Under the pieces are notes generated by a model that did no database searches, had not been told where the DNA came from, and saw nothing but the letters and a program-made list of their open reading frames with translations. The position numbers were made by a program, and so were the translations under genes. Positions 11,527 through 20,221 of a stretch of 32,000 nucleotides of DNA are shown here, piece after piece. Every line of letters starts with the position of its first letter. The stretch's first letter is position 1. Origin of the DNA: Candidatus Saccharimonadota bacterium (GTDB taxonomy: Bacteria > Patescibacteriota > Microgenomatia > UBA1406 > GWC2-37-13); NCBI GenBank assembly GCA_016700135.1, contig CP065004.1:720001-752000 (forward strand), in the 5' to 3' direction.

Positions 11527-14500
11527 ATGAGCATGGATAGACAACCGTCGAGGCGAGTGAAGGAGCTTGTACAGCCCGGCTCCCTCCGTGCCACTCCGCT
11601 CAGGGAAAGCCGGCCGAATTGGTTTCAAAGGGTAATACTCAGGAAAAAAGAGACTCCGAGGCCTGAAACAAACCCAAATACTGAGTTTGACCGCAACAAA
11701 TTTACTGTCGAGACCGGAACTATGAATCATGAGAAAGCTCAGTTCAATCCGGAACTTCAGGCGCAATATTCCACATACCTGCACAATCATCTGACAAGAC
11801 TGGCAGATCTTTATAATCGGGATCCGAATGCATTGATCTTTCAGTCTCCTGCATTCAGACATCAAAAATTGCTGCTTGAGACGCTTGCTACGAAAACGGA
11901 CGGGAATCAGTATGAGATTTCAAAAGCTGATATTGCTGAAGCACTGAAAACCGATCCTGATCTGTGGATTACGACAACGCTGATTATGGAAGAAGATATG
12001 GCAATGACTCTTGCGGGTTTAGGCTTGGTAGCGGAAATCGATCCTGACAAACTAGGGGCGAAAAGTGCTTTTGATGTGACTGTTGATCCCCAAAGAATTT
12101 ATTTGGATATTGACCGCGGCAGGTTGAACAAACTTACCAAAAATCACCCCGTGTTGGCGTCTTTGGCAGTTCTCGGCGCGGGAGCTTTGTCTACTCCGCA
12201 GGGAATAGCTCTTATGAAACAGGCTTATGCAGGTGCAGTTGCGGCAATTCCGCATATTGATCAATTGGTACAAAAAGCAGGTGCTGTGATCCAGAATCCG
12301 GCACTTCTGGCGCCATTTGCAGCTCAGTACGCAGGGTTGGGAATTTCGGCGCTAGCTTTAGCAGTCGGGAATAGATCTCTTTTTAAAGAAGGCGTCGGGA
12401 TCAATATCCGGCGCAATGCCGATCTTCTTCAGAGATTGAAATCAGGAAGGTATCCTGCGGAAGAACAATATTTGCAAGACATTATCGGATTGAATATCAG
12501 TGATCTGAGAGTGACCAGACTCGGGATGCCTCCTGGTACCCGTACAGTCCAACATGAGAACACAAATCCCAACTCTATTGCAATGGAGCAAATCCAGGCA
12601 AGTCTGGTATCGCAGATGTGGACCCGCTTCAAATTTTACAATGAAGGACTTGGTATTCCTCCGGAGAAGATCAACATGATCTCAGAGAATCTGACATTCG
12701 GACAAACCAGAAGCAATTTCAGAGGAGAGCTTACCGTCTGGGGAGAAGAAATGCAGCAGGTAAGAAGCAGAAAAATTGCAGAGTTTATCAATAGGACAGC
12801 GCATGATCCCAATCCTGAAGAACAAATGATGATTGATATTGATGCACGGAGGGAAATCATCACCAGAAGACTGGAGAAACGGCTTCTGAAACAGGAGGCT
12901 TCACAGAAAACCGTATCAATGCTGACAACACAGGCCGAGGCAGTACAAACCGGTGAGTCAAAGGGAAGAATTATCCAAAAACAGACGGAAGATCTTACGA
13001 CTGCCGATTCTATGATCACCGATGCTAATACAACTCTTGCTACAGAAAGAGACCAGTCAGGTTTATATGTCACAGCTTTGGAGAATCTTGATAAGACACG
13101 GGAACGGGTGAGAAATGAATACGGCGTAACGACCGTTGCTGAACTTCAAAATCTGGTCAGAGAACGCGATATATTGGCAGACGATCGGCTGGAAGCCTTG
13201 CGGGATGAACTACAGCAGGCTGAGAAGGCGGTTGAAAATCTTGAAGCTACAAGTAAAAATATTGACCGGCTTCATACTGCACAGGAAGGACAATTTACTG
13301 TATTAACCACAATTGATGCAAGACTTGCAGCTGCGCCTGTACCCGCAGGAGGTGCCGCTCTTGCTCCTGTGAATCTTGATGCAAATTTCCTTGCAACTGC
13401 AACAGTTGAGCAGATCTTTGACAAAATAAATACGGCACACAGCCGGCTGGCAGCCGAAGGCTGGCCAAAAGATCAAAATGCCGCGCATCTCAAGGAAATA
13501 TATCAGGCAATAGCAGAAGCACGTGCAAGACAGATCGATGCAGGGGTTGCTGTTTCATCTCCAGATCTTGTGCTGTTTACGACGGGAGCTGCGGCCGTAG
13601 GCGGTGCAGCAGCGATTCCGGGAGCAGGAATGGAAAACCATGCTTTGATGAATATGACCGTAGATCAGATTATTGCTGAGGTTAATAATGCTCTTCCGGG
13701 AACTCTCAATCCGAATCTGCCTGCGGATCGTGAGAGGGTACGGAAAGTCAAAAATGAGGTCAGAAGGAAGTATGATGTCCGCTATCAGGCCTGGCGAGAG
13801 ATTGAGTCTGAAGCCGGTGATGCACTGACACGTCAGAATACTCGTTCCGGATCTGAAAGGACAAATATCGAAAATGAAATTCAAAAACTTGAGACTGAAC
13901 GTGATGCCATGCGTCGTGAAGAAGCAGATGTTGCTGCTTTCAAGGACGATCAGAAGATTGCGAATTCCACATTGGATCGGAGAGCGCCTTCTTATCACAA
14001 AGGCTGGCAGCAGTTCGAGACGTATCATCGATATTTATCAGGACTTGTACCTCCTCGCACCGACCTTGACCCGGCAAATTTGCATACGAAAGATGTTGAC
14101 ACAATTATGGCTGATATAAATGCGATGTATGCAATAGATCCGAGTGTCGGATGGCCTCCTGCTCAAAATAATGACCCCGAACATATCAGATGGATTGTGG
14201 CCGCAAAAGCAGAATCAGAAGCAAGAAATCGCTCCACTGATATGACTGCTCATGCCGGTGCAATGGCAGATCTTTTGGCTGATGGGGTTCGTGAAGAGGA
14301 TTTGGCAATAATAGATATGAAAGACGTGCGGGCATATTATCTTACCTTGACAGGACGAGGAGTTGCAGCCGGTCATACAGAAGCAGAGTTTGCTGAAGCG
14401 ATTCAGCAGGCTAAACGCCGACATGCTCTCAGAAAACAAATGCTTGGTCAGAATATCACCGCTGCAAAAGGAAGAGGAGGAGACTTTGCGGATACTGATG

Positions 14501-19300: not shown

Positions 19301-20221
19301 GAAGGCGATGCAGATGCTGCAGAGGTCGAGACCGATGCTGATCAGGAAACACATCCGGAAAAGCCGGCCGAACCGGTAACAGATTATGGACAGGCAGTAT
19401 CCAAATTTATCGCACAAAATAATATTGAACTCCGCGGACCGGAACTTCAGCGATTTGTGCTGTATGTTAAGACCAACAATAGGACCGATATAGAGCAAGC
19501 CTATGATGACTATCTGAAAGAAACAGCACCGAAGATCCGTGAGACTGTCGAAACACCTGAGGCTGGCGGAAATCCGCTGGCAGAAGCAGCGCTTGGGATG
19601 GCGGCTATGGCCGAGCAGGGAAATCGTCAACCGAAACAGGAACCGCAAGCACAAGAAGTGACGGAAGATATGAAACAGATTCTTCAGGCAGGAGAGCAAA
19701 ACAATGCAGAGCCTTGGTATCGGGAGTTTTTACAGGATACGGAGACACTAAAGCATATGGAAAAACCCGGGATATTCCGATCTTTTTCAAAAGAACAGAT
19801 GGCTCAATTTGACAGGATTATGACGAATTCACTTGATCGTATGTCTGATATGCCGGCTTACGAATCTGATTCAAGCGTACTTCTCAAATCGGCTAGCCGC
19901 AACCTTGAATTTGCAAAAGCAATCTGCCAAAGAAACAGTCCGGCCAGAAGACTTTTAGCTGAAAAACTTGAAGACTTCATTCGCGATGATTTTCATGCAA
20001 TGCACTACATGCACAAATACAAAAAGGCCGTGAATGACAACGCTTTAAGTCTCTTCAGTGTGACGAAGCGTGACAGCAGCTTTTATAAAGGTTTACTCGC
20101 AGCTTTCTTCAGAAATAAGGAACTTCATCCGACAGAGCTTGCAAATGTCCTTGGAATTCCTGAAGTTCGGGATATCCTGAAACAGGCAGTACTCGGAATG
20201 GAAATAAGGTCAGCGCAATAA
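16346..20221 (+). CDS. giant hypothetical protein (1291 aa) with a central GT-A-like (DxD) glycosyltransferase core flanked by charged low-complexity regions
   Basis: Uninterrupted ORF. K/E/P-rich low-complexity N-terminal region (~16600-17040). An acidic run (DHEDGEEEGQEIPANLPESEETDAENEHADEEGDADAAEVETDADQE) lies at ~19200-19345. The central core is listed separately. No signal peptide or TM segment seen. Confidence 0.8.
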   Translation: MPELSDRILARSEHEKIPALDRLKMRLKALTAPEDLQSFNDSEILAPGYVRQQNQMAEHVGREKPYGRDPQAEIEFRDGELVEKYRNEQQAKKDAQQPQKLRKARQEYTDEFMAARRKFMRKEKADEKRRKKEAEAKQKTEPPEEPSEAVIREQDRLKKIDDNLRPQPNTGDVPKPSLSSGGDTESPDKKAKGSADPEEKLDDGAKPEATGHGDTPEPKQEPKQEQTDPVDPITDAIQKAFKGRGMLGTDNQIKMVQDILDKAKKSGRIMSIEDAVREMRGEQTPAPSRPGEEEYQEVLQKGAQARQEMREKLAPIFAASASYPNPNESKDPSHANGVETGIYKTFRTKAQLFTEEEKRAWEQQQISPTMQEDPHAVLDPEAEISGYFDRQNPEYLQLLDSYMKQEGMQTPMNDECEAVVCIPVYTLAEGQVIQHALEQYLYQIDPKKNKDAIDPKKFEIILFLNHPATKREELEKKLGKSYREGSEKRVKKGNPEVYDTEEVIQQFMIQHPELPIRVMKEEFEERVLWGQIIKPLYDIALRRAEERDNPTQADPLILTNDIDLVRMSPHYIRDVIDFFRQNDQEAADGKAKRIDGAVGKIDLAPEGYRRVPELLLSKRFHSYLELQNTEYNHATHGRNTILRGSTLASIGGPCPYMDNGADGEMGGQIYYARGGDATTIPYLHKAWLETDPRRELKNLQTGVTLAHNWDTWAEMDIYDKNWTELQGEAFDPEKISKDFLEAEINQTIQHPWYKHHNWGGRVERALSFIGLRNHEFFLNRLIFEKGLSQESDEFVKALATFELTQDDYYWDDMGKLVLKNKDGHVDYHFVEEDGQQKIVIDNIDHVKKKLSDYVEEERWNISQKKVDKVAPEHKEEKTGIQARIEKGLNVIRKLSTRIGKKGKSELEEVPQFPLPSPEVQQASLREAQAEYQQEFQAAQENYQEPQLQAADAAIDHEDGEEEGQEIPANLPESEETDAENEHADEEGDADAAEVETDADQETHPEKPAEPVTDYGQAVSKFIAQNNIELRGPELQRFVLYVKTNNRTDIEQAYDDYLKETAPKIRETVETPEAGGNPLAEAALGMAAMAEQGNRQPKQEPQAQEVTEDMKQILQAGEQNNAEPWYREFLQDTETLKHMEKPGIFRSFSKEQMAQFDRIMTNSLDRMSDMPAYESDSSVLLKSASRNLEFAKAICQRNSPARRLLAEKLEDFIRDDFHAMHYMHKYKKAVNDNALSLFSVTKRDSSFYKGLLAAFFRNKELHPTELANVLGIPEVRDILKQAVLGMEIRSAQ
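17588..18430 (+). other. putative GT-A fold glycosyltransferase core inside the 1291-aa protein
   Basis: ECEAVVCIPVYTLAEGQVIQHALEQY resembles the first beta-alpha unit of GT2-type enzymes (xxVxIPxYNE-like). FEIILFLNHP gives a second strand. LILTNDIDLVRMS supplies a DxD (D-I-D encoded at 18026-18034). GRNTILRGSTLASIGGPCPYMDNGADGEMGGQI resembles the GT2 region G-x-N-x3-R-x3-L-x2-IGG-F-x-E-x4-ED-x-EL. This is by-eye matching only. Confidence 0.5.

Follow-up and report, generated by a model that had tools for sequence, protein, structure and literature searches.

A three-gene operon of a Patescibacterium encoding an orphan giant, a small acidic protein and a second giant with a predicted glycosyltransferase core

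We analysed a stretch of 32,000 nucleotides (nt), hereafter the window, from Candidatus Saccharimonadota bacterium (assembly GCA_016700135.1, contig CP065004.1, forward-strand positions 720,001 to 752,000), in which an initial annotation made from the letters alone had drawn attention to two giant proteins bracketing a small acidic one. The three open reading frames (ORFs) lie in one direction at 11455/11527..15978, 15982..16332 and 16346..20221, and we refer to their products as giant 1, the small protein and giant 2. The locus is real, constrained and unusual in architecture: an orphan protein that keeps its length more faithfully than its sequence is encoded together with a protein whose body, here containing a predicted glycosyltransferase (GT) core, is exchanged among relatives. 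Below, relatives' loci are denoted by L-numbers where they have to be told apart.

Results

Three closely spaced genes make up over a quarter of the window

The arrangement described at first, a three-gene operon with gaps of 3 nt and 13 nt, was confirmed in its ORFs and its gaps ('TAA ttt ATG' between giant 1 and the small gene, 'TAA ttgtatatatcat ATG' between the small gene and giant 2), as was its share of the window, given as about 8.7 kb and measured here at 8,695 nt (27%). Neither intergenic gap contains a Shine-Dalgarno motif. The principal features are as follows.

11492..11520, + strand: promoter-like site TTGAAA-17-TATATT, 10 of 12 consensus matches
11527..15978, + strand: giant 1, orphan helical protein (locus tag IPM65_03890), 1483 amino acids (aa) from the ATG at 11527
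15982..16332, + strand: small acidic protein (116 aa, isoelectric point 4.47), the best-conserved product of the operon
16346..20221, + strand: giant 2, mosaic protein (IPM65_03900), 1291 aa
20241..20262, + strand: terminator-like hairpin and T-run, 20 nt 3' of the giant 2 stop codon

The promoter-like site ends 6 nt before the ATG at 11527, a position from which the operon mRNA would be leaderless or near-leaderless. It had been called the best promoter in the window, a rank that it loses to a perfect TTGACA-17-TATAAT site (12 of 12) on the minus strand at 20488-20460, and the number of promoter-like sites in the window equals the expectation from shuffled sequence. The length of 1483 aa ascribed to giant 1 is right as to the ORF and less so as to the start, which probably lies at the ATG at 11533 (1481 aa in the NCBI record), most homologues beginning with MDRQ. 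The window contains no tRNAs, Rfam matches or tandem DNA repeats, and no other protein encoded in it is paralogous to either giant.

Giant 1 joins conserved ends through a middle that keeps its length

Giant 1 falls into conserved terminal regions and a variable middle that contains repeat modules.

11749..12966, + strand: conserved N-terminal region (aa 75-480), from the alignment
12145..12384, + strand: two conserved Ala/Gly-rich, moderately hydrophobic segments (aa 207-230 and 252-286), from Kyte-Doolittle analysis and the alignment
12973..15549, + strand: variable, length-conserved middle (aa 483-1341), in two allelic classes
13363..13530, + strand: repeat module copy 1 (aa 613-668, invariant W646), from cross-matches of module hidden Markov models (HMMs), E 1e-6 to 1e-13
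13624..13782, + strand: degenerate module copy (aa 700-752), only the first half matching, module HMM, E about 1e-3
14062..14226, + strand: repeat module copy 2 (aa 846-900, invariant W876), module HMM
14992..15177, + strand: repeat module copy 3 (aa 1156-1217, invariant GWPK at 1194-1197), module HMM
15484..15975, + strand: conserved C-terminal domain (aa 1320-1483), from the alignment

No part of giant 1 matched Pfam, NCBIfam, PHROG, PADLOC or PDB sequences, and a profile search of the PDB with its alignment was also empty; as far as sequence goes, it is a true orphan. Its orthologues are 38-90% identical and all 1423-1476 aa long. The N-terminal region is 77-89% identical within the close group and about 55% identical to distant lineages; its AlphaFold2 (AF2) model was poor (predicted local distance difference test, pLDDT, 54.9) and gave no fold match in Foldseek (best E 0.96). 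For the two Ala/Gly-rich segments within it, previously suggested as a possible membrane insertion (12145-12385), conservation was borne out and hydrophobicity proved marginal, the 19-residue Kyte-Doolittle means being 1.2-1.55 against the usual threshold of 1.6, and the segments were modelled at pLDDT <40. We consider them a candidate membrane-associated hairpin, if a marginal one, with insertion possible. The N-terminus of giant 1 is not hydrophobic.

The middle carries a repeat unit of about 55 residues, detected by module HMMs only (a BLAST self-comparison found none), with an invariant Trp in each of the three clear copies; the four-fold module initially proposed is therefore three-fold with a degenerate half-copy. 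The long coiled coils also proposed for giant 1 reduce to three strong heptad segments of 35-47 residues each (551-591, 1096-1142 and 1292-1326, by a crude heptad test), two of which stand upstream of a module. These segments cover 8% of the residues of giant 1 (about 120), compared with 0.5% in shuffled sequences.

Over 820 compared residues, the middle separates into two classes, one formed by the window, L010, L001 and L008 and the other (class II) by L006, L004 and L003, with 26-29% identity between them. By its N- and C-terminal regions, on the other hand, the window groups with L010, L001, L006 and L004 (66-98% identity), and class II middles share 67-71% identity between organisms in which identity of the N-terminal region is about 56%. 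Because the middle classes are discordant with the grouping of the ends, the middle has been exchanged between lineages. Its length is nevertheless held at 843-864 aa in all seven proteins, and the spacings of the invariant anchors (Trp) stay within 158-163, 218-233, 318-324 and 143-149 residues. Conserved length without conserved sequence, the pattern expected of a spacer, is thus what the middle displays, and helical regions that are constrained in length and free in sequence have been described as the signature of molecular spacers (PMC5082667). The earlier idea that giant 1 serves as a scaffold fits this behaviour, in that its middle keeps length and anchor spacing rather than sequence.

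The best-conserved elements of the operon are encoded side by side

The small protein is 63-89% identical in an alignment of five relatives and 97% identical to its closest relative, and its isoelectric point of 4.47 bears out the description of it as acidic. It matched nothing in Pfam, NCBIfam, PHROG, PADLOC or PDB sequences. Membership of DUF5663 (PF18908), a family of small proteins found beside other GT-core giants (see below), was considered and rejected: six orthologues gave no Pfam match at E<=10, and the hhalign probability was 0.1%. The small protein resembles DUF5663 by position only.

The strongest conservation in the operon is contiguous: from 15484 to 16546 the DNA encodes the C-terminal domain of giant 1, then the small protein, then the N-terminal motif of giant 2, and all three lie in a single tract that is nearly identical in the window and its 90% relative. 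Their conservation and contiguity hint that the three may form a co-adapted interface.

Giant 2 carries a divergent GT-A core between charged arms

Giant 2 is a mosaic in which one internal domain alone has a wide distribution.

16346..16546, + strand: conserved N-terminal 67-residue motif (MPELSxRxLxRS...RLK...QQN...H[IV]G.E.PY), in all three third-gene forms
17036..17215, + strand: short helical motif, conserved (aa 231-290, 'IKMVQDILDKAK'), with two copies in the UBA1450-like form
17402..18955, + strand: divergent GT-A/GT2-like glycosyltransferase core (aa 353-870), from profile, AF2 and Foldseek evidence
18020..18034, + strand: T-N-D-I-D (from T559), metal- and nucleotide-sugar-binding DxD motif (D561, D563), invariant, directly after strand 204-207 of the core model
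19376..20218, + strand: lineage-specific conserved C-terminal region (aa 1011-1291), 35% identical to the 975-aa core-less form

Only residues 353-870 match proteins beyond close relatives, the nearest of these being 43-49% identical; other GT-core proteins do not have the C-terminal region (aa 1011-1291), and neither terminal part gave a Pfam, NCBIfam, PHROG, PADLOC or PDB-sequence match. Both Asp residues of the DxD motif are invariant in every alignment (6/6, 23/23 and 18/18 proteins), as are the GADxE and DPRR(E) motifs. The AF2 model of the core has an overall pLDDT of 68.9, mostly 80-93 over the first ~245 residues, and a long, poorly modelled C-terminal extension that ends in a small beta/alpha unit and brings the core to ~520 residues. 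All Foldseek matches of this model in the PDB at E<1e-3, and most of the top 30, were GT2-type GT-A enzymes; the matches included PcManGT (E 9e-5), RmlT, K4CP, TarP, hyaluronan and chitin synthases and LH3. Core TM-scores (template modelling scores) stayed at about 0.25, a low value that reflects the poor prediction of half of the 518-residue model. Structure matches in BFVD were likewise annotated as GT-A/GT2.

The core of the window protein has no Pfam match even at E 0.1, and a PDB sequence search with the GT-core family profile found none. Among 18 diverse homologous cores, PF00535 was matched by 6 (2 of them above the gathering score), PF13641 by 3 and PF13632 by 3, and the PF00535 alignments begin at the first strand ('CIPVY' in the window, aa 421-425) and take in the DxD motif, covering profile positions 1-165 of 168. 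Since homologues have curated GT2 matches and the window core has none, its membership is transitive only. From profiles and model together, the core is predicted to be a divergent GT2-like GT-A domain and an enzyme; within a known fold, it forms a new and divergent branch. The proposal of a DxD glycosyltransferase core set in long, charged, low-complexity arms was upheld, with Foldseek and the PF00535 matches of family members as evidence for the core. Giant 2 has no hydrophobic N-terminus and no hydrophobic segment anywhere, so that the statement that both giants lack a Sec signal peptide agrees with the N-termini of both.

The third gene is exchanged, and with it the GT core

The N-terminal 67-residue motif occurs once per locus and is all that the various forms of the third gene have in common. 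In a UBA1450-like lineage whose giant 1 is 38% identical, the third protein has 975 aa and no GT core; what it retains of giant 2 is residues 1-70, a duplicated 231-310 motif and, at 35% identity, the last 280 residues. In another lineage the third protein has 884 aa, of which only the first ~100 residues are shared, and is followed by an extra 186-aa gene. The motif thus stands before three body types, which follow organismal grouping, and matches no known trafficking domain. Because the GT core is absent or replaced in two lineages, glycosylation is not the conserved function of the operon and would, judged from these comparisons, be an accessory rather than a defining one.

The operon is rare and evolves under constraint

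Orthologues of giants 1 and 2 formed only a handful of clusters among 5.8 billion proteins. Pattern scans found the operon in four species genomes (GTDB) and three JGI metagenome contigs, and none of its relatives in IMG/VR or 50,697 phage genomes; giant 1 and the small protein appear to be restricted to a few Roizmanbacteria, and exact matches in the protein database assign the window, too, to a Candidatus Roizmanbacteria metagenome-assembled genome. Three of the records that carry the operon, L010, L011 and L013 (CAZDDM010000021.1, CAYMVU010000013.1 and CAZOHC010000023.1), are titled 'uncultured Gammaproteobacteria bacterium', a label that is probably wrong.

Together with two divergent upstream genes, the operon is syntenic in every relative recovered (about 8 lineages). 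Where the contig extends far enough, the recurrent block consists of a 267-291-aa and a 444-455-aa gene on the minus strand, giant 1, the 114-116-aa gene and a large third gene, flanked by Pth and a GalT-like gene on one side and by an HTH_17 gene and secreted and cohesin proteins on the other. In relatives, every sufficiently long contig carries giant 1 together with the small gene and the third gene, which answers the question of co-occurrence posed at the outset.

We estimated the ratio of nonsynonymous to synonymous substitution rates (dN/dS) by the Nei-Gojobori method against the 90% relative (L010) and the 76% relative (L001). Giant 1 gave 0.13 (L010) and 0.067 (L001), giant 2 gave 0.10 (L010), and the GT core gave 0.047 (L010) and 0.016 (L001); for comparison, the window and L001 differ with a dN/dS of 0.147 in Pth and 0.05 in the GalT-like gene, and the values for the divergent neighbours are 0.05 (455-aa gene) and 0.08 (281-aa gene). 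These ratios indicate purifying selection on the operon, on a par with that on neighbouring housekeeping genes, and the argument that strong selection keeps more than 2700 codons open is sustained by dN/dS of 0.07-0.13, with 0.016-0.05 in the core. Signs of decay in relatives, frameshifts or truncations, come down to a sole disruption, one in-frame TAA in one metagenome-assembled genome. This TAA lies at codon 123 of the third gene in L004/L011 (15138-15140), in the Lys/Glu-rich arm; in the last ~45 nt of the same contig, the sequence runs into unrelated bases. The TAA could be a true nonsense mutation, a strain variant or an assembly error.

DNA identity between the window (4030-18881) and L010 is a mosaic, with tracts of 97-99% at 5100-6300 (the DUF218 gene) and 14700-16500 (from the end of giant 1 across the small gene into the start of giant 2), and tracts of 65-82% at 12000-12300, 14100-14400 and 16800. 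Such a mosaic suggests frequent homologous recombination between these populations.

Glycan and surface-protein genes surround the operon

Three neighbours adjoin the operon.

10119..11486, - strand: 455-aa protein with heptad segments and a C-terminal hydrophobic tail, divergent, co-conserved with the operon
9234..10079, - strand: 281-aa protein, co-conserved with the operon, no family match
20224..20448, - strand: 74-aa HTH_17/MerR-type protein, convergent, directly after the third gene in L001/L002, L003 and L006

The surroundings are as initially described, with a tail-anchored, heptad-bearing 455-aa protein upstream and a cohesin/dockerin protein downstream. Upstream lie genes for two GT4 enzymes, a DUF218 protein, a GalT/HIT-like nucleotidyl transferase and a GH18 protein; downstream lie secreted proteins with Pro/Thr linkers and cohesin/dockerin proteins, in an arrangement that is syntenic in relatives. 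The HTH_17 gene begins 2 nt past the stop codon of giant 2, next to the 12/12 promoter at 20488-20460, and the same gene follows both the GT-core and the core-less forms of the third gene; its product may regulate the flanking surface-protein genes or the operon.

Farther downstream, the products of 20533-21621 and 21656-24253 are paralogous (28-31% identity in two regions), and in the 362-aa product a signal peptide is combined with a long Pro/Thr/Ser linker and a dockerin-like C-terminus. Both paralogues are candidate O-glycosylation substrates, tied to the GT core by proximity alone. On the upstream side, the coiled-coil gene beside GH18 (window 1766-3330, minus strand) is not conserved in comparison with L006 142-1785; the 547-aa product of L006 has no tblastn match in the window, and its first 147 residues are 66% identical to L010. 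The gene beside GH18 is a second variable helical protein of this neighbourhood.

A wider family of GT-core giants has small-protein partners

Searched against 1.84 billion cluster representatives, the GT-core profile found 747 at E<=1e-3 and 254 at E<=1e-30, so the family comprises at least 747 clusters at 50% identity. The term ORFan, initially applied to both giants, consequently suits giant 1, the small protein and the parts of giant 2 on either side of its core, and not the core. Most family members have 1300-2900 aa, with the core in the C-terminal half, and some are fused to FkbM methyltransferase, protein-kinase-like or PP2C domains. Family members share an N-terminal region of ~840 aa that giant 2 does not have; that giant 1 might correspond to this N-terminal region of the single-polypeptide GT giants was ruled out by hmmsearch and hhalign.

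At all four other loci examined, a DUF5663-type small protein adjoins the GT-core giant, upstream in three and downstream in one.

L017 3345-3773, L018 842-1171, L021 160-462 and L020 16179-16712: DUF5663 (PF18908)-type small proteins beside GT-core giants

A DUF5663 small protein and a GT-core giant look like a recurrent two-gene module. The wider giant family and its DUF5663 partners are undescribed in Pfam, and the literature searched held no paper that mentions DUF5663 or describes such giant proteins. One other GT-core locus shares the Pth/GalT-like neighbourhood, with a tail-anchored coiled-coil gene upstream. The 455-aa and 281-aa neighbours were also considered as positional counterparts of genes in L020, and no similarity was found. 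The 110-aa product of window 3332-3664 (minus strand) is 25% identical over 103 aa (E 1.4e-4 in a small search) to the L020 product of 5978-6406 and the L018 small protein at 460-834, a weak homology by which the upstream part of the window may share the functional neighbourhood of the GT giants. In L021, a TrwB/VirD4-like ATPase (DUF87, T4SS-DNA_transf; 7811-10339) is encoded two genes downstream of the 2315-aa GT-core giant; it is the sole link to secretion machinery seen at any locus.

Discussion

A scaffolded glycosyltransferase complex is the favoured reading

The reading that we favour, tentatively and with less than even confidence, is a membrane-proximal cytoplasmic complex in which giant 1 is the scaffold, the small protein an adaptor and the third protein an exchangeable subunit, here a glycosyltransferase that acts on the cell's own envelope glycoconjugates. 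Giant 1 would be an elongated, mostly helical spacer or scaffold, which its Ala/Gly-rich N-terminal segments may hold at the membrane. The docking interface would bring together its C-terminal domain, the small protein as adaptor or chaperone, and the N-terminal 67 residues of the third protein. Docked there would be a metal-dependent (DxD) GT carried on long, charged and probably disordered arms. Drawing on a nucleotide sugar from the cytoplasm, this GT would glycosylate an acceptor at the membrane's inner face, most likely an envelope glycopolymer intermediate, or a surface protein before its export. The physical complex, its location at the cytoplasmic membrane, the adaptor role, the donor and the acceptor are all points that we infer. 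We place this role in the cytoplasm and at the envelope because export signals are lacking, a GT-A enzyme needs a cytoplasmic nucleotide sugar, one neighbour is tail-anchored, and glycan and surface-protein genes lie around the operon.

Several results weigh against this reading. The hydrophobic segments of giant 1 stay under the usual transmembrane threshold in a part of the model with very low confidence, and giant 2 has no heptad segments. The GT core is missing in the UBA1450-like lineage and the entire body is replaced in another; a middle swapped between lineages, as in giant 1, would sooner be expected of a protein facing hosts or phages than of a housekeeping scaffold. No ABC (ATP-binding cassette) transporter, flippase or priming transferase is encoded within the 32 kb, and the kinase and PP2C fusions of the wider family, together with the one TrwB/VirD4-like neighbour, fit effectors as well.

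Those last points lead to the view, which we consider unlikely though worth keeping in mind, of a host-directed effector system, with the third protein as a polymorphic effector that joins a 67-residue recognition domain to an exchangeable GT-A body, the small protein as its chaperone, and giant 1 as part of a delivery or contact structure whose middle would follow the diversity of hosts or phages. One N-terminal motif in front of three bodies that are unrelated or partly related is what such a system would look like, and so is a small acidic protein directly upstream, as at three of the four other GT-giant loci examined (directly downstream in the fourth); allelic classes of the giant 1 middle exchanged across lineages, kinase and PP2C fusions in the family and a TrwB/VirD4-like ATPase two genes from one member agree with it. 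Bacteria of the Candidate Phyla Radiation (CPR) are moreover thought to be symbionts of other cells, and recognition of the host and attachment to it have been proposed as roles of their giant proteins (PMC8080830). Yet the window and the relatives' loci contain no secretion-system gene, no body-linked immunity-like gene and no known toxin domain, and no signal peptide is present; the third-gene forms track organismal grouping instead of being freely shuffled, the core is under very strong purifying selection (0.016-0.05), and its nearest structural relatives are cell-envelope GT2 enzymes, not GT44/GT88 toxins. More improbable still, in our estimate, is the further-reaching version in which the operon is a new contact-dependent effector apparatus, where a membrane-anchored spacer with a swapped cassette and a chaperone would deliver enzymatic cargo to a host; if it were true, its counterpart in a single polypeptide would be found in the wider family of at least 747 GT-core giants partnered by DUF5663 proteins.

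A cytoskeletal or polar scaffold without a glycan role, to which we give about as much weight as to the effector system, would make giant 1 and the 455-aa protein a landmark in the manner of Scy/FilP/DivIVA, TipN or HubP, with the third protein as one of several clients and the GT core as a lineage-specific add-on. The free sequence drift of a giant 1 middle with fixed length and anchor spacing, the heptad segments in both proteins, the dispensability of the GT core and the stable synteny of the five-gene block among housekeeping genes (Pth, L28, deformylase) would all follow; the lack of any sequence or fold similarity to known scaffolds would not, nor would strong heptad periodicity in only 8% of giant 1, and confinement to a few Roizmanbacteria is odd for basic cell biology unless it is lineage-specific. 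Cargo of a mobile element or prophage, for instance a tape-measure or tail-fibre-like giant with an accessory GT, is largely refuted and most improbable: internal repeats in a giant helical protein, the excisionase-type HTH_17 gene that follows the operon directly and mosaic identity between strains recall such elements, but there is no PHROG match of weight, no relative among the viral and phage genomes searched and no integrase, tRNA or repeat boundary, and the operon keeps the same chromosomal position between the same housekeeping genes even at 38% giant 1 identity. That these are decaying or spurious ORFs, open by chance, is refuted by their conservation and hardly deserves any credence; the in-frame TAA of L004/L011 and the lack of family matches for most of the sequence are outweighed by dN/dS of 0.07-0.13 across >2,700 codons and by long invariant blocks and full-length orthologues down to 38% identity.

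Comparison with known systems

Compared with GT2-type GT-A enzymes (PF00535/PF13641; PcManGT 6yv7, RmlT 8bz5, TarP 6h4f and K4CP 2z87), the core of giant 2 is alike in the fold of its N-terminal half, in the 'CIPVY' first strand, in the DxD motif after a strand and in the later acidic GADxE motif; it differs in its ~520 residues with a long C-terminal extension and in its place inside a charged-arm protein of 1291 aa. With the GT-core giant family, the operon has in common the core and a small helical acidic protein directly upstream of the GT giant, whereas its functions are split over three genes with lineage-specific parts.

Glycosylating GT-A toxins and effectors are exemplified by TcdA/B, Lgt1 and SetA, and polymorphic effector loci with small chaperones by those of the LXG/T7SS (type VII secretion system) type. 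The operon resembles them in a giant GT-A protein with a DxD motif, in a conserved N-terminus before an exchangeable body and in the small acidic protein upstream, but it shows no preference for toxin-type GT-A folds and has no immunity gene, secretion ATPase or known trafficking domain.

The closest working analogy, and it is offered as an analogy, is to the coiled-coil molecular-ruler complexes of O-antigen assembly, whose GT2 modules, spacers and methyltransferase-kinase terminators may sit in a single protein or be divided among several (PMC11231755, PMC3482155). In WbdD-WbdA, WbbB and Klebsiella O7 ORF6, GT2 modules are combined with long helical spacers at the cytoplasmic face of the membrane, to which the arrangement in the window may be likened, as may its spacer, which keeps length and not sequence. 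Membership fails, however. Methyltransferase or kinase-like partners are matched only in the wider GT-core family and not in the window proteins, family scans of giants 1 and 2 having found no terminator module (methyltransferase, kinase or Kdo transferase), and no window protein has sequence similarity to WbdD or WbbB. The heptad segments of the window are in giant 1 rather than in the enzyme, no Wzm/Wzt transporter or priming enzyme is near (none was found among the scanned window products or the genes called in the relatives' loci), and the organism is a Patescibacterium, unlike the Gram-negative bacteria in which O-antigen systems have been described. As no new mechanism is demonstrated, we class the locus with scaffolded glycosyltransferase complexes.

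What had been an 'ORFan' locus now resolves into three testable parts, namely an enzyme (D561, D563), a candidate docking interface and a length-constrained spacer in two classes, and it exposes a large, unnamed family of giant GTs with recurrent small-protein partners that Pfam does not capture. The envelope of Patescibacteria and their interaction with partner cells are both poorly understood; since these bacteria, with their tiny genomes, spend 8.7 kb on this operon at housekeeping-level constraint, it is probably important for one or the other.

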